The notes below the pieces were generated by a model. It saw only the letters and a list, made by a program, of their open reading frames with translations, was not told the origin of the DNA and ran no database searches. Of a DNA stretch of 64,000 bases, positions 1,231 to 64,000 are shown piece by piece. The DNA is taken from positions 1 to 64,000 of the IMG/VR virus record IMGVR_UViG_3300032116_000108; one strand, 5' to 3'. The translations under genes were made by a program, and so were the position numbers. Each line of letters opens with the position of its first letter. The stretch's first letter is position 1. The DNA comes from a virus.

Positions 1231-3423
1231 TTAAAAATCTAGTTTAACCGGATACTGTTGGATCCCTTGTCTTTTTTGTGGGGATTGTATCTTAGAAACA
1301 ACCATAAGTTCTTTTTCGGCATTGTAAAGTCCAACCTCTGTTATGTATGGTGGTGTTACATTATCCCATGTTGGGTTTGTTGATTTTAAAAACTGTGTTT
1401 GACCTAAATTACATAGGAAATTCATGACATATATGGTTGCGGTAATATCTGTTTGAATGTTACCAAAAAAGTAATACTCTCCTCCGAAATTCATGGTCAA
1501 ACCTGTTTGATTTACAACAGGAAGATTAATATAATCACTTAAATCATAAGAAATACCATTATCATACATATCTTTTGTGATTTGTATGGTTGTGCCCGTT
1601 AAACCACTAAGAGTTATAAAACCATTTGTTGTTTTAGCAGATAATTGTTCCATAACATCTATTTCAACCCAAGAAGTACTTAACGGTCTTGTTTGTCCTG
1701 AAGCCACTTTTTGAGCAATAACTTTCATTTCATTTGCCGTAAAACCTGTAGGTATTGTATTATTATTAGATATCAAAAACGGAAACTCGTTTCCAAATTT
1801 TAAAAATACATTATAAGTTGTTTGTGATGGATCGATAAGTGTTGGTGTTACTTGAGTATAATAATTGCAATGTAATGAGTTTGTAAATGCTGAGTTGTTA
1901 AACCTATAAGTTACAAATAAACTTTCTGTATTTGCACTTATTAACCCTTCGTCTTGACCTAATATACCATCACAAGCGTTAGGAATAATTGTCCCTACTT
2001 TTGGTGCGGGTAAAGTCCAAGATCTGTTTGATTTATTATTTAATGTTGCAACAATTTCTTCATCATCAAAAACAATCATTTTTAAATCAGGAAATACTTT
2101 ACCCACTCTATTAGGGTATCCATCAACATTTGCATGGGTATCCCATAAGTGATAGTATCTTATACCTGGTTTGTTAAAATCAGCACTTTTTAATGATTTA
2201 ATATAATAAGGGGTTAATAAATTAAGAGAAGAAAACCCATCAGGATCGGTATAAAAGTCTTCACCTATTGTTCCGTTTGGGTTTTTATGCCACATCAACC
2301 ATGGTATTGATATTTTTAAATTTCTTGCTTGTCCGGTATTTCCTGAATTTGCAACATCAAAAGGTTCTTGCGCAAATTTTTCTCCATAAAAATTATCTAT
2401 TGATTGGTTTGTGTAATGTACAATCGCAATTGCTTTTTGTTCTGAGGGTTTTACTGTTATTTTTTCGCCTAATGAATTATAAAAAAATGTACTACTTGTA
2501 TCTTTTTGGCCCGCATTTGTGTTATAACCTAAATATTCTTTTGTACCAACATAACCTGATGATTCATAATTTAAATAACCTTGTACTGTTGTTGGAAAAA
2601 CTCCCGCAGGGTTTTCTGTCCAAGGAATATTCATGTTCCAAACTTTTACATCTGTTTGTGAGACATCACAATTTGTTTCAAAATTAAATACGTTTGTTGC
2701 CCAATATGGTTCTGGAGTAATAGAATCATATAAATCGGTCATTCCTGAAGGATAAAATACAACTCTACTCTGACCTGAATAACTCATATTTAAAAAATCA
2801 GGTAATTGTCTATCCAATTCTATTGTAACTGTGGTTGCTGATGATGTGTCACCAGTAATATTAATTACTTTATAAGTGAATATAGAAGAATTACCACTCA
2901 AAGGGGTTACTGAGTTTGTACTAAATAAAGTTACAAACATACCAGGGGTTACAACTCCGGATACGGATACATTAATAGTATTTGCCGATATTGTGATTAC
3001 AGTTCCTGAAGATAGGTCACTATTTAAAATAACAAAATTTGGATTTACAGTATATGCCGAACTAGTGTATAGTGTGGATCCTGTAAAAAACCCTCTTGGC
3101 GCCGCAGAATTAAATATGTCATCAACAAAAGACGCATCATATGGTATACCGTATGTTGATCCTGAATTCGCATCAACAAAAATTGGGTATTTTATGTTCA
3201 TTTTGTTAAATTCAGGAACAGGTGTAAGATTTTGTGAATTGTATTGTGGTCTTAAAACATTAAATGAGTTTATTACATTTTCACCATTAAAATTATAACA
3301 AACCTCACTATCACCTACTTGAAAATAAGATACATTAAAATTACCCTGAGATAGTCTTCTTCTTCCCGCATCAGTAAGAATTGTGTTAATTAAACCATCT
3401 GTTGTTTTATTTATATAAGACAT
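1231..3423 (-). CDS. virion structural protein (baseplate/fibre-attachment type)
   Basis: N-terminal LTDAGRRRL..G and C-terminal ITEVGLYN...VSK...KLDF are typical of baseplate/tail-fibre anchor proteins; preceded by the late-type motif. Confidence 0.6.
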   Translation of the reverse strand: MSYINKTTDGLINTILTDAGRRRLSQGNFNVSYFQVGDSEVCYNFNGENVINSFNVLRPQYNSQNLTPVPEFNKMNIKYPIFVDANSGSTYGIPYDASFVDDIFNSAAPRGFFTGSTLYTSSAYTVNPNFVILNSDLSSGTVITISANTINVSVSGVVTPGMFVTLFSTNSVTPLSGNSSIFTYKVINITGDTSSATTVTIELDRQLPDFLNMSYSGQSRVVFYPSGMTDLYDSITPEPYWATNVFNFETNCDVSQTDVKVWNMNIPWTENPAGVFPTTVQGYLNYESSGYVGTKEYLGYNTNAGQKDTSSTFFYNSLGEKITVKPSEQKAIAIVHYTNQSIDNFYGEKFAQEPFDVANSGNTGQARNLKISIPWLMWHKNPNGTIGEDFYTDPDGFSSLNLLTPYYIKSLKSADFNKPGIRYYHLWDTHANVDGYPNRVGKVFPDLKMIVFDDEEIVATLNNKSNRSWTLPAPKVGTIIPNACDGILGQDEGLISANTESLFVTYRFNNSAFTNSLHCNYYTQVTPTLIDPSQTTYNVFLKFGNEFPFLISNNNTIPTGFTANEMKVIAQKVASGQTRPLSTSWVEIDVMEQLSAKTTNGFITLSGLTGTTIQITKDMYDNGISYDLSDYINLPVVNQTGLTMNFGGEYYFFGNIQTDITATIYVMNFLCNLGQTQFLKSTNPTWDNVTPPYITEVGLYNAEKELMVVSKIQSPQKRQGIQQYPVKLDF

Positions 3424-3455
3424 ATGTTATAAATATCTATTTTATTTTTTTGTTA

Positions 3456-5108
3456 TTATCCTCCGATACCTCCACCACCGCTTGGTGCAACAGTTAATAG
3501 TCCTTCTTTATCTAATACATTTGTTATTGGGTTAGCAGGTATGTTTAAAGTTTCACAAACATTTTGATTAACTATAGTCGCATTAATCACCGAAAAACTA
3601 TCTCTAATAACTCCCTTTGTTGGACATACTGTAGAATTATTAGTTGTTATTTTTTTAAATATTTGACCTCCAACAGTACCCGGTCCTGTTATTTTTGCAG
3701 AATATGTTCTTGTTGTTGCGGTTACATTAAAATTAGTAAAATTAGTTGACCCAGCACAAAAAGTTGTTGTTGATGTATTAAAACTATTTGTAATTCCACT
3801 TGTTAAATATTGACCTCCTCCTGTTTGACCTGTTGTTGAAGAGTGTAATAATATTGGTGAACTTGTTGTATAAGTTCCTCCTGAAATATTTGTTGTGTGA
3901 ACAATATCAAACGTAATAGTTTTATTTGGCGGTAATGGTGGTTGAATACTAACTTGCCAATCAAATGTCGTTTGTTTATATGACGGAGCGTTGGTTATTG
4001 TTGGTGTTGATGGTATAAAATTTAATGTTATTTGATAATTTGCTACTGATGATTGTGCCGCAACATTAACAAGTTTACTTCCAATATTTCCAATAATGTC
4101 TTTAGCATAAACCGTATATGTGCCTGTATCTAAATTTAGAAAAAATGGTGATGTTTGATAATCTATAGGATTATTTGTTAATGAATATGTATATGGTGGT
4201 ATCCCTCCAATGACTGATGTTACCTGTATTAATCCATTATTAGAGTTTGCACAAGTAGCCGACGATTGTGAAGTATTTAATACAAGATTATCTTCGCAAA
4301 GTCCTTGAGTCACGTTTATTGTTCCACTTGCACCATTAAAATTCCATATACCTATCGGTGGGGACACGTTTGATTGTAAAACAGGTTGTCCTGCTAATGT
4401 CCATCCGGAAACCATCCATTGAAGTGATGTTGTGTTATAATAAATTGTTCTAGTTGTGCTTGTCCAAGAGGGATACCCATTTATGGTGTTAGCAGAATAA
4501 AATTGATATTGAGTATTAGTTGCCGTTATAACTGGTGGTAATGTTGGTGTTATTATATAAATTTTAGAGTTTAAACAAAGTGTTTCTGTATTTTCAATTT
4601 CAGGTGTAGTAGGAAAACATTCAGTACAATTATCAAAAGGCCCTGTTGTTGTTGTTGCGGTAAATTGATAATAAGTTTGTCCTGTATATAAAACTAATCC
4701 TTCGCTCACCCAACAACCTGTTTGAGACGCTAATGTCCATGTTTTTCCTGTCAATATTTGATTTTCTAAATCCGCAGTATAATACAAATGACTTTCAGGG
4801 TCATTGCAATCAAAAAATGATTCTATATAAAATGTTTCAAACCCGACCTCACAAGTTGTTGTTGCGGTAAAATCACCAAAATAGTCAGTAACAGTTGCAG
4901 TATATTCGCCAGGTGCTAAATTTGTTAGTGTTTGTAATTGTGAACCACCACCACCCCAAGATATGTAATAAGGTGGTGTACCACCACTTATAAATAATGT
5001 TATTGCACCATCAGTTGTAAATGGACTGTAAGCGTCTGTCACAATACACTCAACACCCAAAGGGTATAATGTTAAAATATCACAAGTATTTGCACTATAA
5101 TTTACCAT
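3456..5108 (-). CDS. SprB-repeat, Cys/Thr-rich fibre or adhesin protein
   Basis: DGAITLFISGGTPPYYISW...LTNLAPGEYTATVTD and GGIPPYTYSL...NLDTGTYTVYAKD are SprB-type repeats. Confidence 0.65.
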   Translation of the reverse strand: MVNYSANTCDILTLYPLGVECIVTDAYSPFTTDGAITLFISGGTPPYYISWGGGGSQLQTLTNLAPGEYTATVTDYFGDFTATTTCEVGFETFYIESFFDCNDPESHLYYTADLENQILTGKTWTLASQTGCWVSEGLVLYTGQTYYQFTATTTTGPFDNCTECFPTTPEIENTETLCLNSKIYIITPTLPPVITATNTQYQFYSANTINGYPSWTSTTRTIYYNTTSLQWMVSGWTLAGQPVLQSNVSPPIGIWNFNGASGTINVTQGLCEDNLVLNTSQSSATCANSNNGLIQVTSVIGGIPPYTYSLTNNPIDYQTSPFFLNLDTGTYTVYAKDIIGNIGSKLVNVAAQSSVANYQITLNFIPSTPTITNAPSYKQTTFDWQVSIQPPLPPNKTITFDIVHTTNISGGTYTTSSPILLHSSTTGQTGGGQYLTSGITNSFNTSTTTFCAGSTNFTNFNVTATTRTYSAKITGPGTVGGQIFKKITTNNSTVCPTKGVIRDSFSVINATIVNQNVCETLNIPANPITNVLDKEGLLTVAPSGGGGIGG

Positions 5109-5109
5109 A

Positions 5110-5511
5110 TTAGAAAGTGGTTCCTGTAACTATAAACCAACCATTATTAGTTTTATAGTAAAAATTATCATCATCCCAAGAAAAACTACCAGGATCCCCA
5201 ATTGGGTCTGTAGAACCTGATGGGGTAAAACTTGAAGACAAAGTCATAGTAGTTGCACTAAATCCATTATTTACTGTTATACCTGAATTGATATTCACCT
5301 CCGATTCAAAGTTTATAGGTGAACATCCGTGTATGTTTGTAACATAAAGATTAGGTACACAATTACCTGACCAAAATAATTGCCCTAATTCTGCTTTATA
5401 AGAAGAACCCGCAGCGTTTTGTGATGGATCACCAGTATATACAATATGTATAAGTGTTGTTGGCGTTATTGCTGATTGTTGAGCCAATATTTTATCTGTT
5501 AGTTTTGCCAT
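5110..5511 (-). CDS. short fibre protein; paralog of the N-terminus of 11539..13476
   Basis: Shares LTD..LAQ.SAITPTTLIHIV.TGD.SQN.AGSS.KAELGQL and LYVTNIHGCSPI with 11539..13476; C-terminal G..GSFSWDDDNFYYK fibre-like motif. Confidence 0.6.
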   Translation of the reverse strand: MAKLTDKILAQQSAITPTTLIHIVYTGDPSQNAAGSSYKAELGQLFWSGNCVPNLYVTNIHGCSPINFESEVNINSGITVNNGFSATTMTLSSSFTPSGSTDPIGDPGSFSWDDDNFYYKTNNGWFIVTGTTF

Positions 5512-5820: not shown

Positions 5821-7437
5821 TTAACAATTTCCGTTTACGTTACAATATTCAGTTAATAGTCCTGTTGGGCTTACTTCAAATATTTTTGTACCATATTTTA
5901 TATATGTCACAAAAACAGGTGTTGTTAAATTTATATCTTCATACACATAAACACCACTAACTAATGATTGTCCGTCAGCATATATTGTTTGAGTTGTGCC
6001 TCCATTTGTAAGTTCACAAACAGGACAATTTAAGCTAAACTCACCTTTTACATTCCATGAAGTTACTGTTGGTGTTGGTGTTGGTGTTGGTAATAAACAT
6101 GATTCACATGATTTAAATACAGTGAAAGAAGTTCCTGTAAATACCTCTTGTTGTGACCATATAAATCCAGCAGGTGGTGTATAACCAACAAAGTTACCAA
6201 TATAGGTATAACAACTACCTGAAGAAGATTTTAAAACATCTCCAACATCCACAGTAGATCCTGGATATGTGTATTGAATGATCATACTGTTATTTGTACA
6301 AGATGTGAAAACAAATTGTGTCGATACAGGAAACGTTGGTGTTGGCGTTGGCGTCGGTGTTGGAGTTGGAGTCGGTGTTGGAGTCGGTGTTGGAGTAGGT
6401 GTCGGTGTTGGGGCAATACAAGACGTACATCCTGATATATAAATAGCTTGAACTGAATTTAAATAATTTGAAACGCTACCAAATATATCATTCTGGTATG
6501 TCACACATTTATAATTTCCATTAATAACCGCCAAAAATGTTGTTCCTGTTGTAACTCCTGATCCTGAAAAGGTTATTGGTCCTGTAACATAATAACTTAA
6601 ACCCGTATCACAGTCTACTAATTGTTTAACATTTGTACAATCAAATAAACCACTATCAACAACATACGTAACTGATGATAAAATTGGATACATAGTTGGT
6701 GTAGGTGTAGGTGTAGGTGTTGGTGGTGGTAAAGGTGATGGTGATCCTGATATTGAAATAGAAACCGTAAAACCTGAACATAGATTTGGCGTAGGGGTTG
6801 GGGTAGGTGTCGGAGTTGGCGTTGGTGTCGGGGTAGGCGTTGGTGTTGGTGTTGGTATTTCACATTCTAATAATATATCAAAATCCAACAATGAGCAAGG
6901 GTCTGAAGGTGTTGAACCTGAAGGGCAAAGTCCTGTATTTAGTATAGTTGAATCCAAATCGGGACACGTTTGTGTTGTTGGTTGTGATCCATAAAATAAG
7001 CAATTTCCAGTAAGTCCTGTTGATAAACACCATTTTGTGTTGTTATAAAACAAATACCCAGGATTCGTCCCTCCAGTCCAAAAAGGATAACCATTTTCAT
7101 GACCAGCAACATTATAATTACCTGTTATTGCGGTATATCCACTAAAATTAATCGATACACAAACTTCATTACTACAACAATCACCTGTGGCACATAAAGT
7201 ATCTGAACAGTCAGTTTGTAATGTGTATGTTCCATCTAAATTTGTAAAAGTTGTTGCAGTAAATCCAGAAGTAAATGCTGAAACTATGGTGTAGCACCCA
7301 TTTGGTACTACTGGATCACCAGAAAAATGATATGTTAATCCTGTAGTTGCGGTTCCACCCGTTGCAATCCATGCAACGTCATCTGTCACGTATTTGTAAG
7401 CACCATAACAACAACCTTGAAATCTTAAATCTGCCAT
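5821..7437 (-). CDS. Cys-rich structural protein with four Pro-Thr (mucin-like) tracts
   Basis: About 28 Cys in small modules separated by (PT)n linkers; late-type motif at 7454-7461. Confidence 0.65.
6334..6856 (-). repeat. degenerate 6-bp tandem repeats encoding (PT)n tracts (about 6334-6412, 6694-6730, 6787-6856; a shorter one near 6064-6090)
   Basis: Plus-strand runs of GGTGTT/GGCGTT/GGAGTT/GGTGTA. Confidence 0.9.
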
Positions 7438-7475: not shown

Positions 7476-8273
7476 TTATAAATCTAAATTTATCTCTTCA
7501 GGTTTATAATTATAAAAATGTTTATATGCGTGTAAAAAGGCAACGGTTGGTTGTTCCTCCATAGGTACTGACCATCCTGTCTTATCCCACCAATTTCCTA
7601 TGTTTTTTGAATCGTATTGTGCCCAATCTTCCCAAACACCGCTGGTATACCCAAAGAATTGAAATAAAAATGATAGGGTGGCGTCACACCATTCTATAGG
7701 TCTAGAATCTAATTTATATATACTATCCCAAGGAACCTCATTTAATTTATTATATATTTCAATAAATTTTTCTCTATTAAAAATTGTACCTCCACAGGCA
7801 CCATAACTCTGTAAAGATCCTAAATGACTCCAATGATGTCTTGATTCATCTGTGACATTAAATTTATTTTTTAAATATTTGTATAACTCTTCAGTATATA
7901 AAGGCCCGTTTGCGCCTGAAATATCAAATTTTGGTGGTTTAGTGATTTCAAATCTACACCAAACATCATCTTCATAGTGTATAACCCATTCAACGTTTTT
8001 TAATGTTGTTGTACATGCGTCGTATACTCTTTTTAACCAATCTAGTTGTCCATTTTCTTTTACAAAAACTCTCCCTGATGTTGGGTTATTAATTCCTTGT
8101 TGTTCTAACCAAACATAATCACAATTAAATTTTTTTGCGACGGGTTCAAGTAATTTTGATCCGTCCTCAAATAATGCAACAGGAATATTAGGGTATATTT
8201 TTCTTAATTGTTCTAATGCCTTGTAACACGCCACTAATTTATGTCCTGACTGATAAAAAACTCCTATATTCAT
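7476..8273 (-). CDS. putative GT-A fold glycosyltransferase
   Basis: N-terminal Rossmann-like segment (LEQLRKIYPNIPVALFEDG), DxD-like WVIHYEDDVW, GGTIFNRE and a C-terminal His. Start moved to ATG 8273, which overlaps the upstream TGA (ATGA coupling). Confidence 0.65.
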   Translation of the reverse strand: MNIGVFYQSGHKLVACYKALEQLRKIYPNIPVALFEDGSKLLEPVAKKFNCDYVWLEQQGINNPTSGRVFVKENGQLDWLKRVYDACTTTLKNVEWVIHYEDDVWCRFEITKPPKFDISGANGPLYTEELYKYLKNKFNVTDESRHHWSHLGSLQSYGACGGTIFNREKFIEIYNKLNEVPWDSIYKLDSRPIEWCDATLSFLFQFFGYTSGVWEDWAQYDSKNIGNWWDKTGWSVPMEEQPTVAFLHAYKHFYNYKPEEINLDL

Positions 8274-9466
8274 AATAAAAAATCTTGTCTGTTTATCCAA
8301 TTATCCGTATTATCATAAACCCAATATACCCACTTATGTGGTTGGGAGAATGATTTGAAGTTTGCTATTATTTTTTCTTGGTAGTTAGTTATATCATTGC
8401 GGTAGATAACATTATTTTTGTCATCTTCAATACCAATATAAATAAATTTAAAGTTTTCGGTCATTGGGATTTCTAATTCCAAGTTATATTCTTTTTCTTC
8501 TTCTAAATACCACTCAGATGAATCATTAATTGGTGGATTAGTTCCTTTTAAAGTTTCTTGATGTAATTTTCTATTTTTAAAGTTTATTCCGGTATATTCT
8601 TCATATTCTTTATGTGTTCTAACACTTCCTAAACCATATACACCTAAATCTATATTATTATCTTCTTCTTGTAACATGTGTCGTAATCTTCGTTTGGATT
8701 CGTTATCCATCTCCCACCATTGTTTTTCAACAACACCATTATTTTTATTTTCTTGGTTAAAATCTGTCCAATGTTTTGTTCTACCTTCTCTTGTATATTC
8801 ATGCCACACAACTGTTTTATGAGGATGAAATAGATCATAACCTAAAGTATATGAACGAATTGATAAACTAATTTCATCTCCAGCAAAATAAATGTTTGGG
8901 TCATATTTGTATTCTTCACAATGTTTTCCTAGTGTAAAAAAGAAATGTCCACTAACAAATCTTGCAGGTATTGGTTTATCTAACATTTCCCAATTTGGTA
9001 TTCCGTTTGGTCTAAACATTATGGTTCCACTTTCTGTGAAATTTGTAGCAACCATTTTATATGGTTCAACATTTAATAACTCATTATCACTTGGTCTATA
9101 CATTCCAGCATATGATGTGATAATAGGTTTTTTTGAATCAACCATATTCATCATATTAATTAATTCTTCATCCCAATCTTGTAGAAATCTATGATGTGAA
9201 TCTAATTGGAGTGTATATTCTTCTCCTTTCCAAAGTTTTTGTATTTCTGAACGAGCCCAACATAAACCCTTACTTTCTGACCAATTGTATTCTAAAATTC
9301 TAAACCTATCATCGGTGTAAAATTCTTCTAAGGTTTCTGTTTCGTCTTTTTGCCAACATATACCAAAAGTTAAATTTTCAGGGTATTTCGCCTTATTAAT
9401 ACAATCTCTAATTGTTGGTAAAAGTTCTGGGTCTCTATATGATGCGATTTGAACAAATATTTTCAT
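8270..9466 (-). CDS. GT60-like polypeptide/hydroxyproline alpha-N-acetylglucosaminyltransferase (Pfam GlcNAc family)
   Basis: IFVQIASYRDPEL, GLCWARSEIQ, LQLDSHHRF..DWD, FVSGHFFF, YFAGDEISLSIR.YT.GYD and WHEY match the Skp1 GlcNAc-transferase family. Confidence 0.8.
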   Translation of the reverse strand: MKIFVQIASYRDPELLPTIRDCINKAKYPENLTFGICWQKDETETLEEFYTDDRFRILEYNWSESKGLCWARSEIQKLWKGEEYTLQLDSHHRFLQDWDEELINMMNMVDSKKPIITSYAGMYRPSDNELLNVEPYKMVATNFTESGTIMFRPNGIPNWEMLDKPIPARFVSGHFFFTLGKHCEEYKYDPNIYFAGDEISLSIRSYTLGYDLFHPHKTVVWHEYTREGRTKHWTDFNQENKNNGVVEKQWWEMDNESKRRLRHMLQEEDNNIDLGVYGLGSVRTHKEYEEYTGINFKNRKLHQETLKGTNPPINDSSEWYLEEEKEYNLELEIPMTENFKFIYIGIEDDKNNVIYRNDITNYQEKIIANFKSFSQPHKWVYWVYDNTDNWINRQDFLL

Positions 9467-9732: not shown

Positions 9733-11535
9733 TTAATAAGTTATTGTCCAATTTTGAGGTGATCCCGTTAAAAAGGAAACCGCAGCCAACCCGTTGTATC
9801 CACCACTAGAACTGTCCGGATCTGCATTTGTTCCCCCAATGTTTAAATCTATACTATCCCAACCTGTTAAGTTATATGTTGCATTACCACTAAAATCAAC
9901 AAGAATTTGATTAACCTCAGAGGCGGTCATATTATTATCTTGTAATCTTATTCTTACACCATCAGTAAGTGTTGCTCCCGATAATGGTTTAAAATCAACA
10001 TAACCTAAATCACAACCATAAAAACCTAAAGAACTTGTTACTAATCCGGTACCACCATTTGAGAATGTAGACACAGAAACGGGTAATAAAACGTTAGTCA
10101 TCCCTGTATTTAAATATAACGACACCCTACCACCTAATCCTGTCAACATAGACATGTCGTGCGTTCCTTGTAAATCCACTCCTTGAGCTAAATATGATGT
10201 TATGGTATTTACTGAAGGTCCATGCGTGATACCTGTAAGATTATTATTTCCTGTTACAAAAAAAGTTGTTGACAGTCCTGTTATTCCCGACATATTTAAA
10301 TTACCTGTCAGGTTACAACCATCAAAACGCATATATGTGGTTGACGGTCCTATATTAATATGAGTGTTTCCACTAGAACTAAAAGTAATTCCTGTTAAAT
10401 TAGGATTGTTTGCAACACTAAAAGACCCACCTAATATATCAGACACAGTACTTAAATCTAAATTACCCGTAAGGTTGCAATTAAAAATTTTAAATTCATT
10501 AAAATTGTTTGAAGTACCCGTCATGTCAAACGTTACTCCGGTTAGTAATGAATTATCTTGTAATTCCAATACATTATTCATTTTTTTAAATATACTTAAA
10601 TCAAGGTTTCCTGTTAGATTGTTATTATTAAAAGCCATAAGCCCACAACCATATGTTATAATATTATTTGGTCCTGAAGAAATCGCAGAATAACTTGGAA
10701 AAGTTATACCTGTTATATTATTATTTCCAAAACTAATATAAGTTGGAAAACCAGAAAGTGGTGATAAATCTAAATTCCCTTGGATATTACAACTAAACCC
10801 ATATATTAATGGGTTAGATACTGATGCAAAATTTTTGTTTGCAGGAATACTTGGAAATGTTACTCCAGTTAAATTTGGATTACTATTGAAAACAAATGAG
10901 TACCTATTTTGTAATCTAAATAAATTAGTTAAGTCTAAATTACCTGTAAGATTATTATTATCAAGATTATGAAGCCTACCTAAACTAGTCACATTAACAG
11001 GAAAAGTTATTGCTGTAAGTGATTTGTTATCGTAAATATCTAAATCTTGATACCTTTGAAAGATACTAATATCTAAATCTTTAACTCCTGTGTTTTGTAA
11101 TGTATATTGAAACATGGAGTAATTTGAATCAGTAACCCCTTTCCATGTGGTCGGACTAGTAATTGCGGTTAATCCTGGTGAATTAATTATCGAAAACACT
11201 GTCTCTTGTTCTGACCAATCTGAAAAGTCCAAACCACCTATCAAACCACCACCAAATAAGGTGTAACCTATTTGGTTTTTACGGTACGTTTTTATTTGTG
11301 CCACTTTTTCTCCGGCAGTTAAACCTGTAATTGAGTATGGTCGTGTAGTTCCTGTCCCTCCACCACTTCTAGTGACTCCACTGTACGATGTGGGATACCC
11401 ACTAATACCAACTAACGCCCTCTTTATTGTCCCATCATCGGCAAAATAATGAGTAAAATTAAACGTTGTCCCCGTAAACCTAACATTAACTATGTCCTGA
11501 GATTTGTTTGTAGAAAAAAATGCAGCTCCTTTCAT
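9733..11535 (-). CDS. leucine-rich-repeat protein, putative distal adhesin/receptor-binding protein
   Basis: Alternating NNNLTGNLDLS and N.NLTG(V/I)TF repeats; lies directly after the YadA-like fibre gene. Confidence 0.7.
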   Translation of the reverse strand: MKGAAFFSTNKSQDIVNVRFTGTTFNFTHYFADDGTIKRALVGISGYPTSYSGVTRSGGGTGTTRPYSITGLTAGEKVAQIKTYRKNQIGYTLFGGGLIGGLDFSDWSEQETVFSIINSPGLTAITSPTTWKGVTDSNYSMFQYTLQNTGVKDLDISIFQRYQDLDIYDNKSLTAITFPVNVTSLGRLHNLDNNNLTGNLDLTNLFRLQNRYSFVFNSNPNLTGVTFPSIPANKNFASVSNPLIYGFSCNIQGNLDLSPLSGFPTYISFGNNNITGITFPSYSAISSGPNNIITYGCGLMAFNNNNLTGNLDLSIFKKMNNVLELQDNSLLTGVTFDMTGTSNNFNEFKIFNCNLTGNLDLSTVSDILGGSFSVANNPNLTGITFSSSGNTHINIGPSTTYMRFDGCNLTGNLNMSGITGLSTTFFVTGNNNLTGITHGPSVNTITSYLAQGVDLQGTHDMSMLTGLGGRVSLYLNTGMTNVLLPVSVSTFSNGGTGLVTSSLGFYGCDLGYVDFKPLSGATLTDGVRIRLQDNNMTASEVNQILVDFSGNATYNLTGWDSIDLNIGGTNADPDSSSGGYNGLAAVSFLTGSPQNWTITY

Positions 11536-20809: not shown

Positions 20810-21892
20810 TTAGGTGGTGTTAATTTTAAAAAAACCATAACCATACCTTTGTAAATCCCCTACATTATCCACCTCACCAAGTCTTTGTGTGTATTCAAAA
20901 GGAGAGTATTTACCTCTTTCTACAAAAACGTCTGTCTGAACTTCAGGCGCCATAACAAAATCTAAAAGTAATTCGTCTTTTGTTAATCCAGATGATGCTA
21001 AATCATTAATAGTAAACCCTGATGACTCAAAAGAAAAGAAAGTCGTCCCACTAAAATAATCTATATAGTGTATTCCATCGATAGTGTATGCTATATAATC
21101 AGCCTCAATTTCATCAACAACACCAATACTATTATCACTTATTTGTACAAAAAAACCAGGAATGTATTCTTGTGGTCCCCATAACCTAAGAAGTCTCAAC
21201 TTAGATTTTGTCTTACCTACAATATTAAAAGGTACTTGTGTGTAGTTACTTGATACATGATATTGAGCATCATTAACAGAATCACCTGTAAAAATGTAGT
21301 TATATGAAATTGGTATCCCTGACCAAGACCCACCTTGTTGTGTAAAAAAAACTTCACCTAATTGGTTATCTATGGTTACTCCCGTAAATGGTAAAAAGAC
21401 TGGTTTTTGAATAGTTGTTAACCCAAAAGGATTTAATTGTGATAATGTAATAATATAATTACCTGGTGAGTTTTGATACGTGTGTGATTGTTGCCCATTA
21501 CTTGTAGATAATTGCCCTGATACGGATCCGTCTCCCCAATCTATTGTGTAATTAGCTAACTGCAAGTAACTGTTGAACACAAAAGAACTTGAATTATAAA
21601 CGGTTACAGTATACGGGTTTTGACTATTACCTGAAATGACAAAATTTCCAACAATATCTTTTTGATCAATAAAACCACTAAACTCAGAATAATAACCAAT
21701 ATCATTATATGACTGATTTAAAATAATAGGTATAGTTAAACCAGTTAAATATGAATTACCATTAGTTCCTCCACTAACTATTTCAGTCATAGATGAATAA
21801 ACCCCAAAATCTACTCCATTATATGTTTCTTCAAAAATATCAGTTTTAAGAAACTCAGGACTAATTCTATATTTTAAAAAACTATTAGACAT
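20810..21892 (-). CDS. structural protein with a PKD-like domain
   Basis: YTIDWGDGS...SHTYQNSPGNYIITL is a PKD signature. Confidence 0.6.
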   Translation of the reverse strand: MSNSFLKYRISPEFLKTDIFEETYNGVDFGVYSSMTEIVSGGTNGNSYLTGLTIPIILNQSYNDIGYYSEFSGFIDQKDIVGNFVISGNSQNPYTVTVYNSSSFVFNSYLQLANYTIDWGDGSVSGQLSTSNGQQSHTYQNSPGNYIITLSQLNPFGLTTIQKPVFLPFTGVTIDNQLGEVFFTQQGGSWSGIPISYNYIFTGDSVNDAQYHVSSNYTQVPFNIVGKTKSKLRLLRLWGPQEYIPGFFVQISDNSIGVVDEIEADYIAYTIDGIHYIDYFSGTTFFSFESSGFTINDLASSGLTKDELLLDFVMAPEVQTDVFVERGKYSPFEYTQRLGEVDNVGDLQRYGYGFFKINTT

Positions 21893-55203: not shown

Positions 55204-57123
55204 TTAATAACCGAAGACACCTTTTTCTCCCATGATTTTTGGCATCTTAGAAAACTCTTCTCTAATTTTATCGGTTAATAATGTTGCGTTGTCTCCTTTT
55301 TCTAACATTTGTTTTAATGTGCCATCAACACCTTTAACTTCAATTACTATTGGGCTGAACTTAACTTCGGTGGTGTTATTTGTATTAACGGTAGTTTCTA
55401 CTTTTGCAAAAGTCTCACCCGGTGTTTTTGTTTGCATAGGTAGTGGTTTTGATGACATATCATTTAGTGCGTATGCGGTATCAAAACTTAGTTTTGCTTT
55501 ATTTAAAATCTCATTTAATCTTGGTGCTGCTAAAAAATCATCTTCTTTATCAAAAACCATTTTTGAAATGGTTCCTTTATCACCACTTATTAAGGTGTTA
55601 CTTTCAAACGGAGTTTCAGTTATCATATAATCTTTAGCAGTACCCGACCAACTTGTGTTTGCCATGTCCTGTTGCATTTTATCTTCTTCTGTTGCTGAAA
55701 CAGCTAAAATATCTTTAATATTTACACCACTAACAATTTTAGACATAAAATCACCCATTCCTACATTTTCTTGAATTCTAGCATAATATTCAGTAGATTC
55801 TTTCATGTTACTTTCTAAATTCTTCATGATTTTATTTTGTTCTGATGCATTCTGTGATAAAACTCCTTTATCACCAGTAAGAAGATAGTCATGTATTGCT
55901 CTAACATCTTTTGCTTGTTTTTCGGATATACTTAAATTTGACATCGCAATTCCTCTTTCATCCAACTTAGCCTTTTCCTGATACTCCTTTATGTTATTCA
56001 TTTGTGCAACCGTAGCGTTAGTTACATCTTCAATTTCACCTACTCCAGGTATGTTTAAACTAATTTTTCCATCTTTTATTTCTCCGACACTTTTTATTAA
56101 TTCTAATTGGTCTTTATCAAATTTGTTAGGCGTTAAACTATTAATTTTATCTTCAATAAATGATTGTTTTACTCTTTCTTGACCTATTTGCATTGCGGTG
56201 TCTAAATTACTACCCATTAATGTTGCTTGTTTTTCTAATCTCATTAATTCTGAAGGGCTTGGTGGTATGGGATTTCCGAGTTCGTCTAATTTAAATGCCG
56301 ATTCATATACTTTTAACATTTCATCCTGTAACCCTTGAGCATCATATTGTCCCATTCTCATAACTTCAAAGAAATTCCCTAACTTTCCTATTTCCCCACC
56401 ATACATTTGCATACCCTGAGATAATTTAACTGCTTGTTCAGGGTCCCATAATGTTTTAGCCAATTTAAGCGCACCGATACCATCAATACTAGTTCTTAAA
56501 CTAGCGGCTTCTGATGCCATTTGAGTTAAACCTTCAGAACTTAATCTAAATGTTTGTAGACTTTGTATATTTTTAGAGACATCATCAACAACTGTTTTTA
56601 CATCTAAACCTAATTTTTGAGCTTCATTAGTGATTTTTTGTATTTCTTTAAATGAATTTTCTTGAGAATTAAAAATTCTCATAAAAGTGGCCTCTGTTTT
56701 TATTAAGTCAGCAGTCGCCATACCCGTCGCTTTTGAATACTCGATTTGATCCATCAAGAGTCTCTGTGTTGGGACAACCGCCTTATTTAATGCACTACTT
56801 GTTTCACCAGCGGCGGTTGTTATTTCTGAAATATTGACACCTAACTGATCTAATCCCTCACCTAACTGCGTTGTTCCAACATAAGCGTCAGTAATATATT
56901 TTTGAAACGCATTACTGTTTATTACAACACCGTCTGTAATTTCTCTTTGTTTTTTTATTGTGGTGTCTTGTATTTCAACTAATCCCTTTACCGCATTTGA
57001 TAATGCGTTCTGTAAATATGTTGCTTCTTCTAGCGCGGTTTTTGCCTGTGAGGCACTAGAAAAAACACTCTTACCGGCAGCTCCGGCACCTAGATTAGTT
57101 GGTATAGTGTCTGATAAAAACAT
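55204..57123 (-). CDS. tape-measure-like protein
   Basis: Helical Ala/Gln/Lys/Met-rich sequence; lies after the tube and chaperone genes and before the baseplate hub genes. Confidence 0.6.
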   Translation of the reverse strand: MFLSDTIPTNLGAGAAGKSVFSSASQAKTALEEATYLQNALSNAVKGLVEIQDTTIKKQREITDGVVINSNAFQKYITDAYVGTTQLGEGLDQLGVNISEITTAAGETSSALNKAVVPTQRLLMDQIEYSKATGMATADLIKTEATFMRIFNSQENSFKEIQKITNEAQKLGLDVKTVVDDVSKNIQSLQTFRLSSEGLTQMASEAASLRTSIDGIGALKLAKTLWDPEQAVKLSQGMQMYGGEIGKLGNFFEVMRMGQYDAQGLQDEMLKVYESAFKLDELGNPIPPSPSELMRLEKQATLMGSNLDTAMQIGQERVKQSFIEDKINSLTPNKFDKDQLELIKSVGEIKDGKISLNIPGVGEIEDVTNATVAQMNNIKEYQEKAKLDERGIAMSNLSISEKQAKDVRAIHDYLLTGDKGVLSQNASEQNKIMKNLESNMKESTEYYARIQENVGMGDFMSKIVSGVNIKDILAVSATEEDKMQQDMANTSWSGTAKDYMITETPFESNTLISGDKGTISKMVFDKEDDFLAAPRLNEILNKAKLSFDTAYALNDMSSKPLPMQTKTPGETFAKVETTVNTNNTTEVKFSPIVIEVKGVDGTLKQMLEKGDNATLLTDKIREEFSKMPKIMGEKGVFGY

Positions 57124-57283: not shown

Positions 57284-58039
57284 TTATTCAAAGAAAGGCC
57301 GAAAAAACTCCACCCCAAACGTAACATTCACAGTAACGTTTTCTCCTGACGGGGCTTGAACTTCTCTTACAAGGTTTAATTTAGGTTGGCATTCTTCCAT
57401 GAATCTTCTTAAACTTTTAGAATCAGATATTGGTAAATTTATAATAATTGATCCAATAAACCCCTTATCTTTATTTCCGTCAATATCTACTATTTGTGTT
57501 TCAAGTTTTTTTGTTACAACAGGTGCAATCATTCCTTTAGGGTATTTAGCTGTAAGATTGTCGATTTCTGTTTCTTCTCTCATATTTAACACCTTAAATC
57601 TTACCTTTTTTTGTGTTTTCGGTAATGTGTATATAAAAAGTCCATCTTCATCTGGAATATGTTTTAATTCTTGCATATCAACACTATCTAATATAATAGT
57701 AGTTTCAAATTCTATTTTAGTTTTAGGGTCCATTAGTTTAAACCTATAGTCGGGACCGAAAGCGGTATTTCTTAAAAATAATAGTATTGCTTGAACATCT
57801 CCAGGTAATAATAGTTCAACATCAAACCCATGTTCATAAATTTTATTTCTTAAAAGAGTTTTAATTAATTCAGCACCTGTCATGTTTTGAGACATAAGAA
57901 GGTTTTCATCTTGTGCGGTCAGATAACCAATTTTTAAAGATTCTTTTTTTGGTTTGTAAAAAATACCTCTTGATGGTAATTTAATTACGTCATGTGGTAA
58001 GTTAAAATTTTCTTGACCATATTTTAAAGCGTCGTCCAT
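57284..58039 (-). CDS. baseplate-hub / tail assembly chaperone (T4 gp26-like)
   Basis: IKLPSRG.FY, YLTAQDENLL, LLPGD..AILLFLRNTAFG..Y, YTLPKT, C-terminal FGVEFF; located between tube and tape measure. Confidence 0.75.
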   Translation of the reverse strand: MDDALKYGQENFNLPHDVIKLPSRGIFYKPKKESLKIGYLTAQDENLLMSQNMTGAELIKTLLRNKIYEHGFDVELLLPGDVQAILLFLRNTAFGPDYRFKLMDPKTKIEFETTIILDSVDMQELKHIPDEDGLFIYTLPKTQKKVRFKVLNMREETEIDNLTAKYPKGMIAPVVTKKLETQIVDIDGNKDKGFIGSIIINLPISDSKSLRRFMEECQPKLNLVREVQAPSGENVTVNVTFGVEFFRPFFE

Positions 58040-58133: not shown

Positions 58134-58622
58134 TTAATATACTAAAATACATCTGTCAGGTTGTAATTTCATATCAACTCCCATGATATCATCTCCACCG
58201 TAGTTTAGTGAACCAAAGTTTACGCTTGTAATTAAACAACCTTGTAGAATCCACTTTTCAACCGCCACACCTGTTGGGTCTAACAATTCTAAGTCAAGAT
58301 CTTTTTTATAACCGGCAGCATATCCCATACGACCCGTTACTGATTCTGCATGTAATCTAACCCATTCCATTGCCGCTTGTGCTGCCGAAGGTCCGATTGG
58401 GTCTCTTAATTTAACACCAATCTCACCCCATGAAAAGTTACTTGAAACGTAAGTTTGTGTGTTTAAGAATTTTATTTCTTTTTTTCCAATTGTTATTTGA
58501 GGTCTATTGGTAGTTTCAACATACCAAGAATTAATCCCCAAAGAAGATGGGAAAGTCAATATAAACCTATTTGCTCTTTTAGGTTCATACTGAAAAGGCA
58601 TTCTCATTAATAAATCAGCCAT
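58134..58622 (-). CDS. tail tube protein (T4 gp19-like)
   Basis: YEPKRANRF, RPQIT, W..I...L.DPI.PS, EWV, YKKD..L..LDPTG..VEKW.L.G; downstream of the sheath gene. Confidence 0.85.
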   Translation of the reverse strand: MADLLMRMPFQYEPKRANRFILTFPSSLGINSWYVETTNRPQITIGKKEIKFLNTQTYVSSNFSWGEIGVKLRDPIGPSAAQAAMEWVRLHAESVTGRMGYAAGYKKDLDLELLDPTGVAVEKWILQGCLITSVNFGSLNYGGDDIMGVDMKLQPDRCILVY

Positions 58623-59882: not shown

Positions 59883-62800
59883 TTATACGTCATCGAACGA
59901 TGCTCCTGTTGGTGTGATAACAAACTCTATGTCTATGTATTCTAACGCTCTTGTTGGTTTCAAGAAGATTTTACCCGTTAAAGTATTTGAATCCAAATCT
60001 TCAGGAGTATTAGAAACAGTAACTCTAAAGTCAATTAAACCTCTATCTCTTCTGATTGAATCCAAGATTGGGTTAACCGCATCTAAGAAATCTTGTCTCA
60101 CTTTGTCGTCATTTTGTTCAAATAACAATCTAACCGCAACCGCTGAAATTAACTTTCTTGCTTGTAGTAACAATCTTCTAACGTTAATTCTATCTAAAGC
60201 GGATTCTCTAATTTGTAAAGTTTTATTACCCCAAATAACCGTACCAACATCAGAGAAAGTAGCTATTGGATTAATTCTTCCTTTATATAGTGTATCTCTA
60301 TCTTCTTGAGTTAGTTTCTTTCTTGCTTTAATAGAGTTAACCAAACCTCTTGTGTAACCAGCCGATGCGAACCAAGGGAATGCAATATTATCGGTTAATG
60401 CTAAGTTTTTAGTTACCTCACCTGTTGGTGGAAGATAAATTTGAGTATTATTTACAGAATCTCTTGTCAAAATCCACGGATAGTAAGTTGCTGTGTAATT
60501 TGAATCAATTCCTGTATTCTCTAAATTATCTACCACTTCTTGTGGATAAATTAATCCTTCCGTTAAGTCACTGTATGAAGGTAAGAAAAGATTAAAGTCA
60601 GGTGTTGTACAAATGTAAATTGAGTCAGCCCTATCAGTTTCAACAACATCTATAGCGTTTTCAACAAGATTTGAATTATTAACATAATCAATTCCTGGTG
60701 TAACAAAAACGTTAATGTTAGTTGCTTCAGGATTTGCAAATGATGTTTGACCCCATAGATATGCATAATAGTCAGTATTTGCCCACACTTCTTGGTTAGG
60801 TCCTGTAATTTGTTTAAATGCCCCCCATCCTGTTGCTGTTGGGTATGTGGCAGACGCCGCAGCACCTTTTTTATAACCTGATTGACCTAATTGGAATCTA
60901 TCGGTATTGGTTCTACTTTCTCTGTATATATCCCAACCATCAAAACCGCCAGCGGCTAATAATGTAAATTTACGAGTATTTAATCTAAAATATGCATTAT
61001 CTGAATCCGTAGGTTCAGAGTTGAAAGAAGAAACCCCAACCTCAAAAGCCGAAGTATTAGCAGACATAAGTACATCAAACATAGTAACTATAGTTGCTCC
61101 ACTATCCATGTGGAAACCTTTTGTCTTGTAACCCCATTCTGATCCTGTAGTATCTACCGCAATATTTGAAGGTAATTGTTTTCCTTTATAATTAAAGAAG
61201 TCATAATCTATTCCTGTAATATTAGATATACCTAAATAAGCCCTTCTTGGATTTTCTCCATTTGAGATTACTGGATTATCTCCGCCCGCTGATGAACCAA
61301 ATGGTGGGTTATATATTACTTCACCAGGTGTTAAGTATTTAGTTTTATAAATAACAAAAGGAGGGGTTGCAGTTTGGTATTGTCTAGAAATATAACCCTC
61401 AAATCCACAAGGTAATGCATCGGTTGGGTACTCTTCACTTAACTCAACCATTATGTATTTAGAATTTAGTTGGTATTCTCCATTTGCGGTACCAACTTTG
61501 TTTGCCACAAAATTATTAAGATTAGGATCCATTGAACAATTTGTGAAACTTTCAATTACTCTAACGTTTTGATCATTATCATAAAAGTCTCTTACAAAAA
61601 TATCAAACGTTCCATTATTAAATGAAATATTCCCAATAGAAATCTTAACAAGTCTGTTAGAGGCATCTCCATCTGAAATAAGTTTGAATTTAAATAATTT
61701 ATAAACTTTGTTACCTCTTAATTCAGAAACAACAAATGGAGTTTCAGGTGTTTGGTATTGTTCTAAATAAAAACCTAAAGTGTCGTTATCTCCACTTCTT
61801 GCATCATCAATAGCGATAAAGTCACAATACAAACCTCTAACTTTACCGGCCCTATAACCTGATGTTAATAGACTACTGTAAGATTCCTCAACAAATAAAG
61901 GAACCTCATTTCTATCTTTAGCAAAATTAGACCTACCAAATATTTTAGAAATATATCTACTATCTGTTGAAAGGAGTGAAGTTTCAAAACTAAAAGTGTC
62001 ACTATCTTTTGTAATACCTGAAATAACAAATGTACCGTATGGGTCTTTAGTAATTCCTGAATAATTTCCTGAACATACCATAATTGCGTCACTTGTACCA
62101 CTAACTTCATAAACAGGACCATCATCTGTTGAATATGTTGATATACCTCTTGATCTTAAAGTTGCAACTACTAAATCGTCATAATCAGAATATGGTGTAC
62201 CTGAATAGAATGTTGCATATAATTTACAAGTACCTGTAAATTGTGAGGTAGTTGCGCCTGTGCCAATAGCATCAAGAGCAGCACCAAAACCAAAACCATA
62301 ATAACTTCCAACACTATTAGTTTTAGTATAATCAAATAATGAGTAATACCAAGGGTCGTTAACGTCCGAACTTAAATCTGCATTTGCTAAAATTACATTA
62401 TCAACACCAAAAGTTTCAGTTGTTGCAGAAACAGGAACTCCAAATAATGTAGTACCGGTTACTTGGTTAAACGTTCCTCCACTTACTGTTCCCCAAAATA
62501 CTGCGTTACCTACTGTTGCTCCACTACCACCACTTGCAAAATTATTAATTTTATTTGATAAGAAATTTATAAAATCTTGATTTAATGATGAAGTACCTCC
62601 ATTAAATGTTGTATAGTTGTTATAAAATATTGATGATAACAATGATGACGGGTTAGTTACTGTAACATTTGCACTTGAACCTGTTGTACCTGTGAAAGTT
62701 AATGTGTATGATGTGCTAACACCTGTTGCCGCTATTGTTGATGTATCGGGGTTTCCTATCGTTGTAATAGACCAAGATGGTCCCGCATCATAACCCGATA

Positions 62801-63095
62801 AACCAAGAACTCTTGTTACAAAAAGTTGGTTAGATTGTTGCAAATAAGATTTTGCAATATAAGATGTTTCATATTTAGGAATTTGAGTATTAACAAATTT
62901 TTCAGGGCTTGTGCCACCGAAATAAACTTGATACTCGTCAAAACTTGTAATGAAGATTGGTTCAAATGCCGGACCTTGTAGTGTTTCACCTACAATACCT
63001 AATGTTGTTACACCGACACTTTGAGCCACAAAAGTTAAATCTCTTTCTGATGTATAAACACCTGGAGATACAAATACTTTGTTAGTTGAAGCCAT
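59883..63095 (-). CDS. contractile tail sheath protein (T4 gp18-like)
   Basis: FVSPGVYTSERD, G...QGPAFEP, TRVLG, YTATYYPW, PWFASAGYTRG, INPI, WGNKTL, RINVRRLL, PTRALEYI.IEF. Confidence 0.95.
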   Translation of the reverse strand: MASTNKVFVSPGVYTSERDLTFVAQSVGVTTLGIVGETLQGPAFEPIFITSFDEYQVYFGGTSPEKFVNTQIPKYETSYIAKSYLQQSNQLFVTRVLGLSGYDAGPSWSITTIGNPDTSTIAATGVSTSYTLTFTGTTGSSANVTVTNPSSLLSSIFYNNYTTFNGGTSSLNQDFINFLSNKINNFASGGSGATVGNAVFWGTVSGGTFNQVTGTTLFGVPVSATTETFGVDNVILANADLSSDVNDPWYYSLFDYTKTNSVGSYYGFGFGAALDAIGTGATTSQFTGTCKLYATFYSGTPYSDYDDLVVATLRSRGISTYSTDDGPVYEVSGTSDAIMVCSGNYSGITKDPYGTFVISGITKDSDTFSFETSLLSTDSRYISKIFGRSNFAKDRNEVPLFVEESYSSLLTSGYRAGKVRGLYCDFIAIDDARSGDNDTLGFYLEQYQTPETPFVVSELRGNKVYKLFKFKLISDGDASNRLVKISIGNISFNNGTFDIFVRDFYDNDQNVRVIESFTNCSMDPNLNNFVANKVGTANGEYQLNSKYIMVELSEEYPTDALPCGFEGYISRQYQTATPPFVIYKTKYLTPGEVIYNPPFGSSAGGDNPVISNGENPRRAYLGISNITGIDYDFFNYKGKQLPSNIAVDTTGSEWGYKTKGFHMDSGATIVTMFDVLMSANTSAFEVGVSSFNSEPTDSDNAYFRLNTRKFTLLAAGGFDGWDIYRESRTNTDRFQLGQSGYKKGAAASATYPTATGWGAFKQITGPNQEVWANTDYYAYLWGQTSFANPEATNINVFVTPGIDYVNNSNLVENAIDVVETDRADSIYICTTPDFNLFLPSYSDLTEGLIYPQEVVDNLENTGIDSNYTATYYPWILTRDSVNNTQIYLPPTGEVTKNLALTDNIAFPWFASAGYTRGLVNSIKARKKLTQEDRDTLYKGRINPIATFSDVGTVIWGNKTLQIRESALDRINVRRLLLQARKLISAVAVRLLFEQNDDKVRQDFLDAVNPILDSIRRDRGLIDFRVTVSNTPEDLDSNTLTGKIFLKPTRALEYIDIEFVITPTGASFDDV

Positions 63096-63231: not shown

Positions 63232-63387
63232 ATGAAAAAAATTAAAAACATTAAAATTTCAGAAGAATCACATAAACTATTAAAAGAGTATTGTGAAAAA
63301 AAAGGATTTAAAGTATATAAGTTTTTAGAAAACTTAATTATAAAAAATTGCCAAAAAGAAAAAGACATTTACGGTGAAGATTTATAA
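63232..63387 (+). CDS. 51-aa ribbon-helix-helix-like DNA-binding protein; the only credible plus-strand gene
   Basis: Not in the track: MKKIKNIKISEESHKLLKEYCEKKGFKVYKFLENLIIKNCQKEKDIYGEDL. Alternating beta strand, helix, Gly turn, helix. Confidence 0.65.
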   Translation: MKKIKNIKISEESHKLLKEYCEKKGFKVYKFLENLIIKNCQKEKDIYGEDL

Positions 63388-64000
63388 TAATTTTACAACT
63401 GTTTTAATAATAGATTCTTTTGTTATATCTTCTTTATAAACTACAATTTTTAAAACGTCTCCATTATTTACTTGTATTAGTGATAAGTTGTCCCCGTAAA
63501 AATTATTATTAATAAAAACAGAATAACCGTTAGCACAAGAATCAATAGCAGTAATTGTACCACCACTTGTGTTTGAAAAGTATGGTTGTGTTGATGATTT
63601 TACGCAAACAGTACCATAATTTCCAGATACTGTTGGTAGGGTAATGGTTGTACCTGAACAATTAGTATAGATTAAATTGTTATTTGTTATTGATGAGTAT
63701 TCTGCAGAAAAACAGTTAATAATATTTGTGGCACTATCAACTAAGATATCGGCATCGTACCTCATTACCTCAACCAATTCTGTATTTCCTGAAACAAATA
63801 AAAAATCTAAATCAAAATTATCGGGTCTTGGAGGTTCTATCTTTACTTTTCTACCTCTAGTTCTTGTATCTACTTCAAACATAGAAACTTGTCTAGATAT
63901 TGCAGGGGCAATTGTAAATTCTTCTTCATCTAATAAAAACCCCATAAGTGTTAGTTTATAGGTTTGAATATAATATTTTCTTTTTTCTATATCTTTTGCC
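63382..64000 (-). CDS. neck / tail-completion protein (T4 gp15-like), C-terminal part
   Basis: Frame open to the window edge (AKDIEKRKYYIQTYKLTLMGFLLDEEEF...); lies upstream of the sheath gene. Confidence 0.5.
   Translation of the reverse strand, partial: AKDIEKRKYYIQTYKLTLMGFLLDEEEFTIAPAISRQVSMFEVDTRTRGRKVKIEPPRPDNFDLDFLFVSGNTELVEVMRYDADILVDSATNIINCFSAEYSSITNNNLIYTNCSGTTITLPTVSGNYGTVCVKSSTQPYFSNTSGGTITAIDSCANGYSVFINNNFYGDNLSLIQVNNGDVLKIVVYKEDITKESIIKTVVKLL

Follow-up and report, generated by a model that had tools for sequence, protein, structure and literature searches.

The window examined here comprises the first 64 kb (64,000 bp) of an 80,132 bp viral contig (IMG/VR record IMGVR_UViG_3300032116_000108) estimated to represent about 25% of its genome, and about 15 proteins of this genome are enriched for a tetrapeptide motif, [ST]-[GA]-x-T. 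The motif is confined to tail-fibre, baseplate-distal and outer-sheath proteins, its density and residue rule are kept in relatives while individual sites move, it has been lost repeatedly from whole proteins, and its presence is independent of the GT60-family glycosyltransferase encoded among the most enriched genes. With moderate confidence we read it as an acceptor or recognition site for a modifying enzyme of the phage that is not GT60, the modification probably being O-glycosylation; we infer the existence of the modification, its glycan nature and the enzyme responsible. The source is a fragment of an uncultured jumbo myophage of ~31% GC, since its relatives are 281-295 kb in length (96-98% complete) and carry a T4-type major capsid protein (PF07068).

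A directional tetrapeptide motif

The enriched set contains 170 occurrences of [ST]-[GA]-x-T where 36-38 are expected from shuffles within 10-30-residue windows (~4.5-fold, z 23-24), and whole-protein shuffles give z values of up to 9.6, so that the enrichment survives composition-preserving shuffling. The reversed motif occurs 36 times and shifted registers 33-62 times, both at expectation, and together with the local shuffles these controls rule out compositional clustering and low complexity as its source. In the roughly 15 enriched proteins 170 of 382 [ST][GA] dipeptides are followed by x-T, compared with 18 of 206 in the remaining genome (Fisher p = 5e-21), the latter being the background level. 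When every pair of residues 1-5 positions apart is scanned without bias, SG, GxT and SxxT come out on top once linkers of repeated Pro-Thr (PT) are set aside. The motif is thus confirmed as real and strong, and it is sharper than the initial annotation had it: of the [S/T]-[G/A]-x-[T/S] first described, Ser or Thr at position 0 and Gly or Ala at +1 stand, and Ser at +3, which shows no enrichment, does not.

The refined form is phi-[ST]-[GA]-x-T-phi, where phi denotes the I, L, V and F favoured at positions -1 and +4. Thr makes up 45% of the residues at +3 after [ST][GA], 3.7 times background, and is at background at +2 and +4, such that the motif is both directional and register-specific. Its frequency at +3 is 46% after Ser and 42% after Thr at position 0, with N, D, G, A and all other residues giving 0-15%, and N, D and other residues yield only ~1x enrichment; sorted by position +1 it is 49% for Ala and 43% for Gly, with S, N, T, C and all others at 0-14%. 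The equivalence of Gly and Ala argues for a small-residue requirement over a glycine-dependent turn. Codon use within the motif is that of the background, Ser being drawn from both TCN and AGY in the usual proportions, which indicates that selection acts on the protein and rules out a cause at the DNA level.

Distribution over the proteins of the window

A long block of fibre-like genes lies at 1231-24481, with SprB, YadA-head and leucine-rich-repeat (LRR)-like repeats; these genes, like all of the long genes of the window, are on the minus strand. The best non-repetitive example of enrichment is a conserved tail-associated protein of 730 aa (1231..3423), which has 16 [ST][GA]xT among 26 dipeptides where 1.5-1.7 are expected, and a 360-aa protein (20810..21892) has six where 0.5 are expected. 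Under the looser x-[ST] rule these two proteins yield 18 of 26 and 8 of 11, exactly as counted at first. That the motif is dense in fibre proteins is also borne out: it is found in a virion structural protein with SprB repeats (3456..5108; 12 motifs, expected 3.6, including the SprB-consensus SGGTxPY), a short fibre with the docking N-terminus SAITPTTLIHIV (5110..5511; 5, expected 0.7), a Cys-rich protein with long (PT)n linkers (5821..7437; 15, expected 2.6), a fibre with YadA-head repeats and pentad arrays of the form SGGTV-SGATN-..-TANTM-SASTL (11539..13476; 20, expected 5.1) and a 930-aa protein with SprB repeats and PT linkers (14092..16884; 19, expected 5.1). In the LRR-like fibre protein (9733..11535; 15, expected 2.8) it occupies alternate repeats, N-x-N-L-T-G-[VI]-T-F, in agreement with the LTG[VI]TF/LTAITF consensus noted earlier. 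Enrichment is weak in a 996-aa baseplate-distal protein (16875..19865; 6, expected 1.8) and a 569-aa protein (22772..24481; 4, expected 0.7), and two strongly enriched proteins are encoded just beyond the window, at 72525..74243 (22 of 34 dipeptides) and 74267..76195 (11 of 22).

The tail sheath (59883..63095) divides along the same lines. All ten of its motifs are in a lineage-specific insertion (residues 135-359, 665 and 678), and none is found among the eight [ST][GA] dipeptides of the conserved core (residues 781-1067, phrog_23), which agrees with the placement of the sheath motifs in an N-proximal insertion that had been reported. The tube and tape-measure candidates (58134..58622, 57284..58039 and 55204..57123) likewise have none, as first described, with 0 of 15 dipeptides followed by Thr in the last of these, a 639-aa tape-measure candidate. 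The ribonucleotide reductase (NrdJ; 34640..36508) serves as a negative control with 1 [ST][GA]xT among 13 dipeptides (2 of 13 by the looser rule, the count given initially), and a 2101-aa beta-propeller baseplate protein with five DUF5122 repeats (24481..30786; 6 of 33, unenriched) as one within the tail module. There is no enrichment in the wedge proteins. The term virion-wide in the initial annotation was therefore an overstatement, the motif being a property of about 15 proteins in this genome, and of 9 of 259 open reading frames (ORFs) in the 96% complete relative G002, with the capsid protein, tube, tape measure, wedge and sheath core all without it.

Occurrence in other phages

Most of 54 diverse loci from related uncultured jumbo phages show 2- to 6-fold enrichment of the motif, and at p < 1e-3 the numbers of enriched ORFs per whole genome are 15 in G016, 8 in G021 and 3 in G028. 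The motif belongs to a large group of low-GC, T4-like jumbo phages, uncultured and with probable Bacteroidota hosts. It is not a generic property of phage fibres, which is ruled out by gp34-38 of T4 (Thr at +3 at 1.3 times background, i.e. no motif), by Flavobacterium phage immuto, whose fibres and spikes, one of them homologous to 11539..13476, likewise give 1.3 times, and by the syntenic fibre region of the related phage G037. The whole proteome of Xanthomonas phage XacN1 contains 164 motifs where 169 are expected.

Proteins within one genome switch together. Five adjacent genes at loci L198/L199 are all motif-rich, and in G037 the syntenic fibre region (22 of 223) and the sheath ortholog (3 of 36) are all motif-poor. 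We note that G037 (L300-L309) is a complete genome of 185 kb which keeps the gene order of the window (primase, RuvC, a fragment of the 730-aa protein family, fibres, wedge, ribonucleotide reductase, helicase and sheath) and is a useful outgroup, having neither the motif nor GT60, nor the RfaG-like GT-B and GT2_5 enzymes discussed below; faint AxT, TG and SG signals (z 3-4) are present in its fibre proteins.

Site turnover and repeated loss

The 730-aa protein, which is non-repetitive and has no PHROG or Pfam match, belongs to a family for which we collected 327 IMG/VR relatives and 603 cluster representatives. Within its clade (50-98% identity) 17 motif sites are common to at least 30% of the sequences, Thr at +3 is 85% conserved compared with 59% for other Thr residues, and Ser and Thr interchange freely at position 0. 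Homologues at 30-37% identity match the clade in motif density (up to 25 of 40) and exactly in rule, with Thr at +3 in 58% of cases and in ~10% where N, D, G or A is at position 0, and an unbiased scan of these distant homologues returns GxT with a z of 16. Just 2-7 of the ~16 sites are common to any pair of distant motif-rich homologues.

Other homologues have no motif at all (P0008, 0 of 4; P0013, 0 of 5; P0011, 0 of 12; P0142, 0 of 28; P0067, 0 of 10), with P0008, P0013 and P0011 at 46-53% identity, and in eight motif-free homologues that were profiled Thr follows 1 of 55 dipeptides. These homologues have the same fold, which thus does not need the motif. In a FastTree phylogeny of 84 members with midpoint rooting the motif-poor members are interleaved with the motif-rich ones, and parsimony requires 13 changes; with shuffled labels the number averages 18.5 and is never below 12. 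Density and rule are therefore kept while sites move, and loss from the whole protein is repeated, with ~13 switches. Drift towards AT-richness accounts for the losses only in part, as P0142, P0126 (3 of 24) and P0011 are not AT-biased. No replacement motif was found in the motif-poor lineages and no close IMG/VR relatives of P0008, P0094, P0113, P0067 or P0011; P0113 was absent from the JGI metagenomes searched and P0076 from GTDB genomes. Separately, in the low-GC loci L216-L218, L222 and L252 genuine stop codons, for example TGA TAA at codons 433-434, divide the family gene in two ORFs, which rules out stop-codon recoding in L216, L222 and L252.

As judged from these sequences, the pattern fits that expected of a motif read by a trans-acting, lineage-variable factor. 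A plausible scenario is that a short linear motif is kept by selection on exposed loops of the fibres, the baseplate-distal proteins and the outer sheath domain, and that its most likely reader would be a phage-encoded cytoplasmic glycosyltransferase. O-glycosylation would then occur at many sites, before or during tail assembly, with one hydroxyl residue serving as acceptor and the other as recognition element, as in N-x-S/T. The best candidate enzymes would be an RfaG-like GT-B protein (78827..80038) and an enzyme with a GT2_5 domain. The proposal in the initial annotation that the motif is a sequon holds up insofar as unrelated folds converge on it in what appear to be loops and it evolves as a sequon would, with turnover, ~13 losses and motif-free homologues of the same fold; GT60 as the enzyme does not.

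The same evolutionary signature would apply to any other trans-acting factor, such as a fibre-assembly chaperone, a different modification (phosphate, acetyl or methyl) or a host-surface ligand, and these phage groups encode many unknown proteins as well as, according to PMC12619734, chaperones. We consider such a factor improbable: nothing speaks specifically in its favour, the window shows no candidate kinase or acyltransferase, and chaperone sites are usually hydrophobic and buried and not polar loops.

Structural context of the motif

Only one structural model was made, an AlphaFold2 (AF2) prediction for the 730-aa protein from a 33-sequence alignment, which is of moderate quality (predicted local distance difference test 63.5, predicted template modelling score 0.68). 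The confidently modelled motifs are predicted at the ends of strands and in the loops that follow (residues 114-117, E--E; 146, 190, 496 and 575 at strand ends), just before strands (195-198 and 595-598), at the N-terminus of a helix (226-229) and inside a short helix (606-609). The sites thus appear to lie in loops of mixed local structure with no single conformation. The fold has no significant match in the PDB, with weak matches to tailspike N-domains only.

This bears on the possibility that the motif plays a structural or biophysical role with no modification, as a strand-turn-strand element, a beta-arc or an array of surface Thr residues by which water is ordered or polysaccharide or ice is bound, selected in some lineages for fibre stability, solubility or adhesion. 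The hydrophobic residues at -1 and +4 and the five-residue pentad arrays of the fibres are consistent with such a role, as are the instances within the SprB and LRR consensus sequences and the 17 sites that are positionally conserved within the clade; the tetrapeptide moreover matches the ice-binding motif of FfIBP (PMC5334608; bioRxiv 10.1101/2023.03.06.531300), and the phages are aquatic and uncultured, judging by their IMG/VR sources and a lead to 'moraphage'-like phages (PMC12619734). We regard a purely structural role as rather unlikely, though it is the main competitor of a modification and a serious one. Against it stand homologues of the same fold that lack the motif, ~13 switches on the tree and the turnover of sites at constant density, and the local secondary structure in the AF2 model is heterogeneous. 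Judged by general turn statistics, it also speaks against Asx/ST-turns and glycine turns that N and D are not accepted at position 0 and that Ala serves as well as Gly at +1. The fibres of T4, immuto and G037 do without the motif, and no DUF3494 domain, to which the ice-binding motif belongs, is present in any enriched protein scanned.

The GT60 gene and Pro-Thr tracts

The initial annotation had named a GT60/GT pair within the fibre module as the likely reader of the motif. The gene at 8270..9466 is a clear member of the GT60 family, matching PF11397 at 228 bits against a curated cut-off of 21 (E 2.3e-67) and phrog_24687 at E 1e-100, and its own product is without the motif. Characterised GT60 enzymes are polypeptide GlcNAc-transferases. 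The gene lies between two of the most enriched genes (5821..7437 and 9733..11535) and is present in 10 of 15 relatives tested, the five without it all being fragments, and XacN1, which also bears GT60, has virion glycoproteins (PMC5852040). The second member of the supposed pair, a 274-aa ORF that overlaps the end of the GT60 gene (7476..8300), is unenriched for the motif, has no detectable signature of a glycosyltransferase family and has no homologue in G002.

In spite of its position, it is highly improbable that the motif is the acceptor sequon of this GT60 and its overlapping partner. Whether the motif switches with the glycosyltransferase repertoire had been proposed as a check, and for GT60 the two are decoupled in both directions. 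Motif-rich G016, G021 and G028 have no GT60: in G016 (297 kb, 93% complete) none is detected by hidden Markov model (HMM) and a tblastn search with four divergent GT60 queries gives a best E of 0.29, and 19 of 20 diverse records, including nine of nine that are complete, lack it by HMM, the motif-rich G021 and G028 (both 100% complete) among them. Conversely, XacN1 and the divergent GT60 loci L136 and L141 carry GT60 and lack the motif, including in the S/T-rich neighbours of GT60 at the latter two. A further case is G002, whose GT60 (179799-181049) is 37.5% identical to that of the window and 48% identical to that of XacN1, and whose 730-aa protein is 73% identical to that of the window. As the G002 gene is closer to that of XacN1 than to that of the window, GT60 was apparently replaced by a xenolog at the same locus, with the motif unchanged.

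GT60 instead tracks runs of (P[TS])n, which we counted where at least four repeats were present. There are 5 such tracts in the window genome, 6 in G002, mostly flanking GT60, and 16 in XacN1, with none in the 1.07 Mb of the GT60-less G016, G021, G028 and G037 combined. GT60-centred loci have 17-19 tracts per 100 kb compared with 0-0.2 elsewhere (L136 and L141 have 7 each); the equivalent loci of GT60-less records have 1 tract in 430 kb and other loci none in 652 kb. This co-variation extends across several independent lineages (5821-7437 and 14092-16884 in the window, L082-L145, and XacN1) and suggests that GT60 more probably modifies (Pro-Thr)n linkers in a mucin-type manner, the tracts of 5821..7437 being the likelier target. 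Eukaryotic GT60 acceptors are mucin-like and rich in Thr and Pro, and the co-occurrence with PT tracts matches them; the phage member does not track [ST][GA]xT, and its activity and acceptor are putative. A link of GT60 to PT tracts also fits the virion glycoproteins reported for XacN1 (PMC5852040), and gives this otherwise eukaryotic family a candidate acceptor, open to test, for its branch in bacterial viruses.

Candidate transferases for the tetrapeptide

Just outside the window, at 78827..80038 of the genome, is a gene for a GT-B protein that matches phrog_7162 and, weakly, PF13692, and is RfaG/GT4-like by its language-model neighbours. Its counterparts in G002 and G016 are 82% and 57.5% identical to it, and G006, G011 and 18 of 20 diverse records encode it as well. 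An enzyme with a GT2_5 domain is found in G002, G016, G021 and G028, such that both are present in all four motif-rich genomes tested for both; motif-free G037 and XacN1 have neither, and immuto also lacks the GT-B. This co-occurrence is suggestive only, with G037 the single informative negative genome. A search of PDB sequences returned no match for either GT60 or the GT-B.

A wider scenario, which we offer as possible and somewhat short of probable, is that a widespread group of aquatic jumbo phages hyperglycosylate their fibres, outer sheath and baseplate periphery at a new sequon, [ST]-[GA]-x-T, using the core GT-B, the GT2_5 enzyme or both, with a separable GT60/PT-linker system in some lineages, and that loss of the enzyme would lead to loss of the motif across all proteins.

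In G002 (95729-105814, L151/L152) the GT-B gene is clustered with genes for a bifunctional GT2_5+GT4 enzyme, an FkbM methyltransferase, a GT2/GT92-like protein and an FAD oxidoreductase. This glycan-type cluster, which lies beyond the end of the window's contig, is interleaved with PolB-exonuclease-like and dUTPase/dCTP-deaminase-like genes.

Several points weigh against glycosylation of the motif. The co-variation of enzyme and motif rests on one informative negative, G037, together with distant phages, and is confounded by phylogeny. The core GT-B could equally glycosylate DNA, because in G002 it adjoins exonuclease and dUTPase-like genes; the alpha- and beta-glucosyltransferases of T4 are themselves GT-B enzymes. 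The hydrophobic flanks and the pentad arrays fit a strand-turn-strand element, some instances belong to the consensus of a widespread domain, such as SGGTxPY of SprB, and the AF2 model, of moderate quality, is read as secondary structure and not as solvent exposure. Two proteins that are probably exposed are not enriched, namely the 2101-aa beta-propeller baseplate protein and the T4-like capsid protein of G002 (2 of 19). The support for a sequon is evolutionary, and the modification putative.

Comparison with known systems

Literature searches turned up no earlier account of a motif or sequon of this kind in phages. In its overall logic the proposed sequon resembles N-x-S/T and the Bacteroidota sequon D-[ST]-[AILVMT], each being a short motif with an acceptor and a recognition position that turns over at a constant density; it differs from both in residues and spacing. 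Its distinctness from the Bacteroidota sequon, which had been pointed out, is upheld in that the motif shows no enrichment of Asp ahead of it and its +1 position is restricted to G or A. Bacteroidota O-glycosylation is moreover periplasmic and acts on exported proteins, and phage fibres fold in the cytoplasm.

The closest functional parallel may be with the TibC/Aah autotransporter heptosyltransferases, TibC being a GT-B enzyme that hyperglycosylates beta-helix adhesins in the cytoplasm (PMC4358343). In those systems numerous Ser and Thr residues in the loops of a beta-rich adhesin with repeats are decorated ahead of its export or assembly; the phage likewise encodes a core GT-B, and its adhesin-like fibres are rich in beta structure and offer many candidate sites. 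The phage GT-B differs in having no PDB sequence match at E <= 1, no TibC/Aah homology was detected that would place it in the autotransporter heptosyltransferase (BAHT) family, and the phage motif, whose modification is putative, is a tetrapeptide with a defined rule that recurs in proteins of unrelated fold.

In mycobacteriophages (Freeman et al. 2023, cited in PMC12619734) and in chlorovirus PBCV-1, whose Vp54 is glycosylated (cited in PMC5852040), proteins exposed on the virion are decorated by glycosyltransferases that the virus itself encodes. As these systems are presented in the citing papers, decoration falls on the C-termini of capsid and tail-tube proteins or on the capsid protein, whereas here the capsid is unenriched and the candidate tetrapeptide is on the fibres and outer sheath. 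The T-A/G-X-T/N ice-binding motif of DUF3494 proteins such as FfIBP (PMC5334608; bioRxiv 10.1101/2023.03.06.531300) is nearly the same tetrapeptide and forms a surface Thr array on a beta-solenoid, to which the pentad arrays of the phage fibres may be compared. The likeness is one of the tetrapeptide alone, as no enriched protein scanned has a DUF3494 Pfam match; many phage sites are in isolated loops and not on a flat repetitive face, and the phage rule accepts Ser at position 0 and does not accept Asn at +3.

Few defined sequons are known for O-glycosylation in bacteria or phages, and none for tail fibres. If the motif is modified, large groups of uncultured phages would coat their host-recognition apparatus with self-made glycans, with a bearing on host range, protease resistance and adsorption, and the motif could provide a portable tag for cytoplasmic glyco-engineering. 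With ~13 independent losses on the family tree, the gene responsible should be identifiable by gene-content profiling alone. Even if unmodified, the motif is a strong, lineage-variable signature that marks exposed tail proteins in jumbo-phage genomes that are otherwise unannotatable.

Gene content and relatives of the window phage

In addition to the fibre block, the window encodes baseplate wedge proteins and the tail sheath, together with replication and nucleotide functions that include a primase, RuvC, ribonucleotide reductase, a DnaB-type helicase, an exonuclease, a UvsX-like recombinase and a single-stranded DNA-binding protein. Searches of a phage collection by tblastn with the 730-aa protein, a 572-aa fibre and P0076 returned no cultured relatives, and there is only a lead to aquatic, Bacteroidota-infecting 'moraphage'-like phages (PMC12619734), to which the window phage may be related. 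The only link to a cultured phage is through the YadA-head fibre (11539..13476), which is 52% identical over ~350 residues to a tail spike of Flavobacterium phage vB_FspM_immuto (NC_055915, 97658-100819), a sequence match that supports a Bacteroidota host. This fibre and the short fibre at 5110-5511 have near-identical N-termini, SAITPTTLIHIV, as if both dock to the same adaptor.

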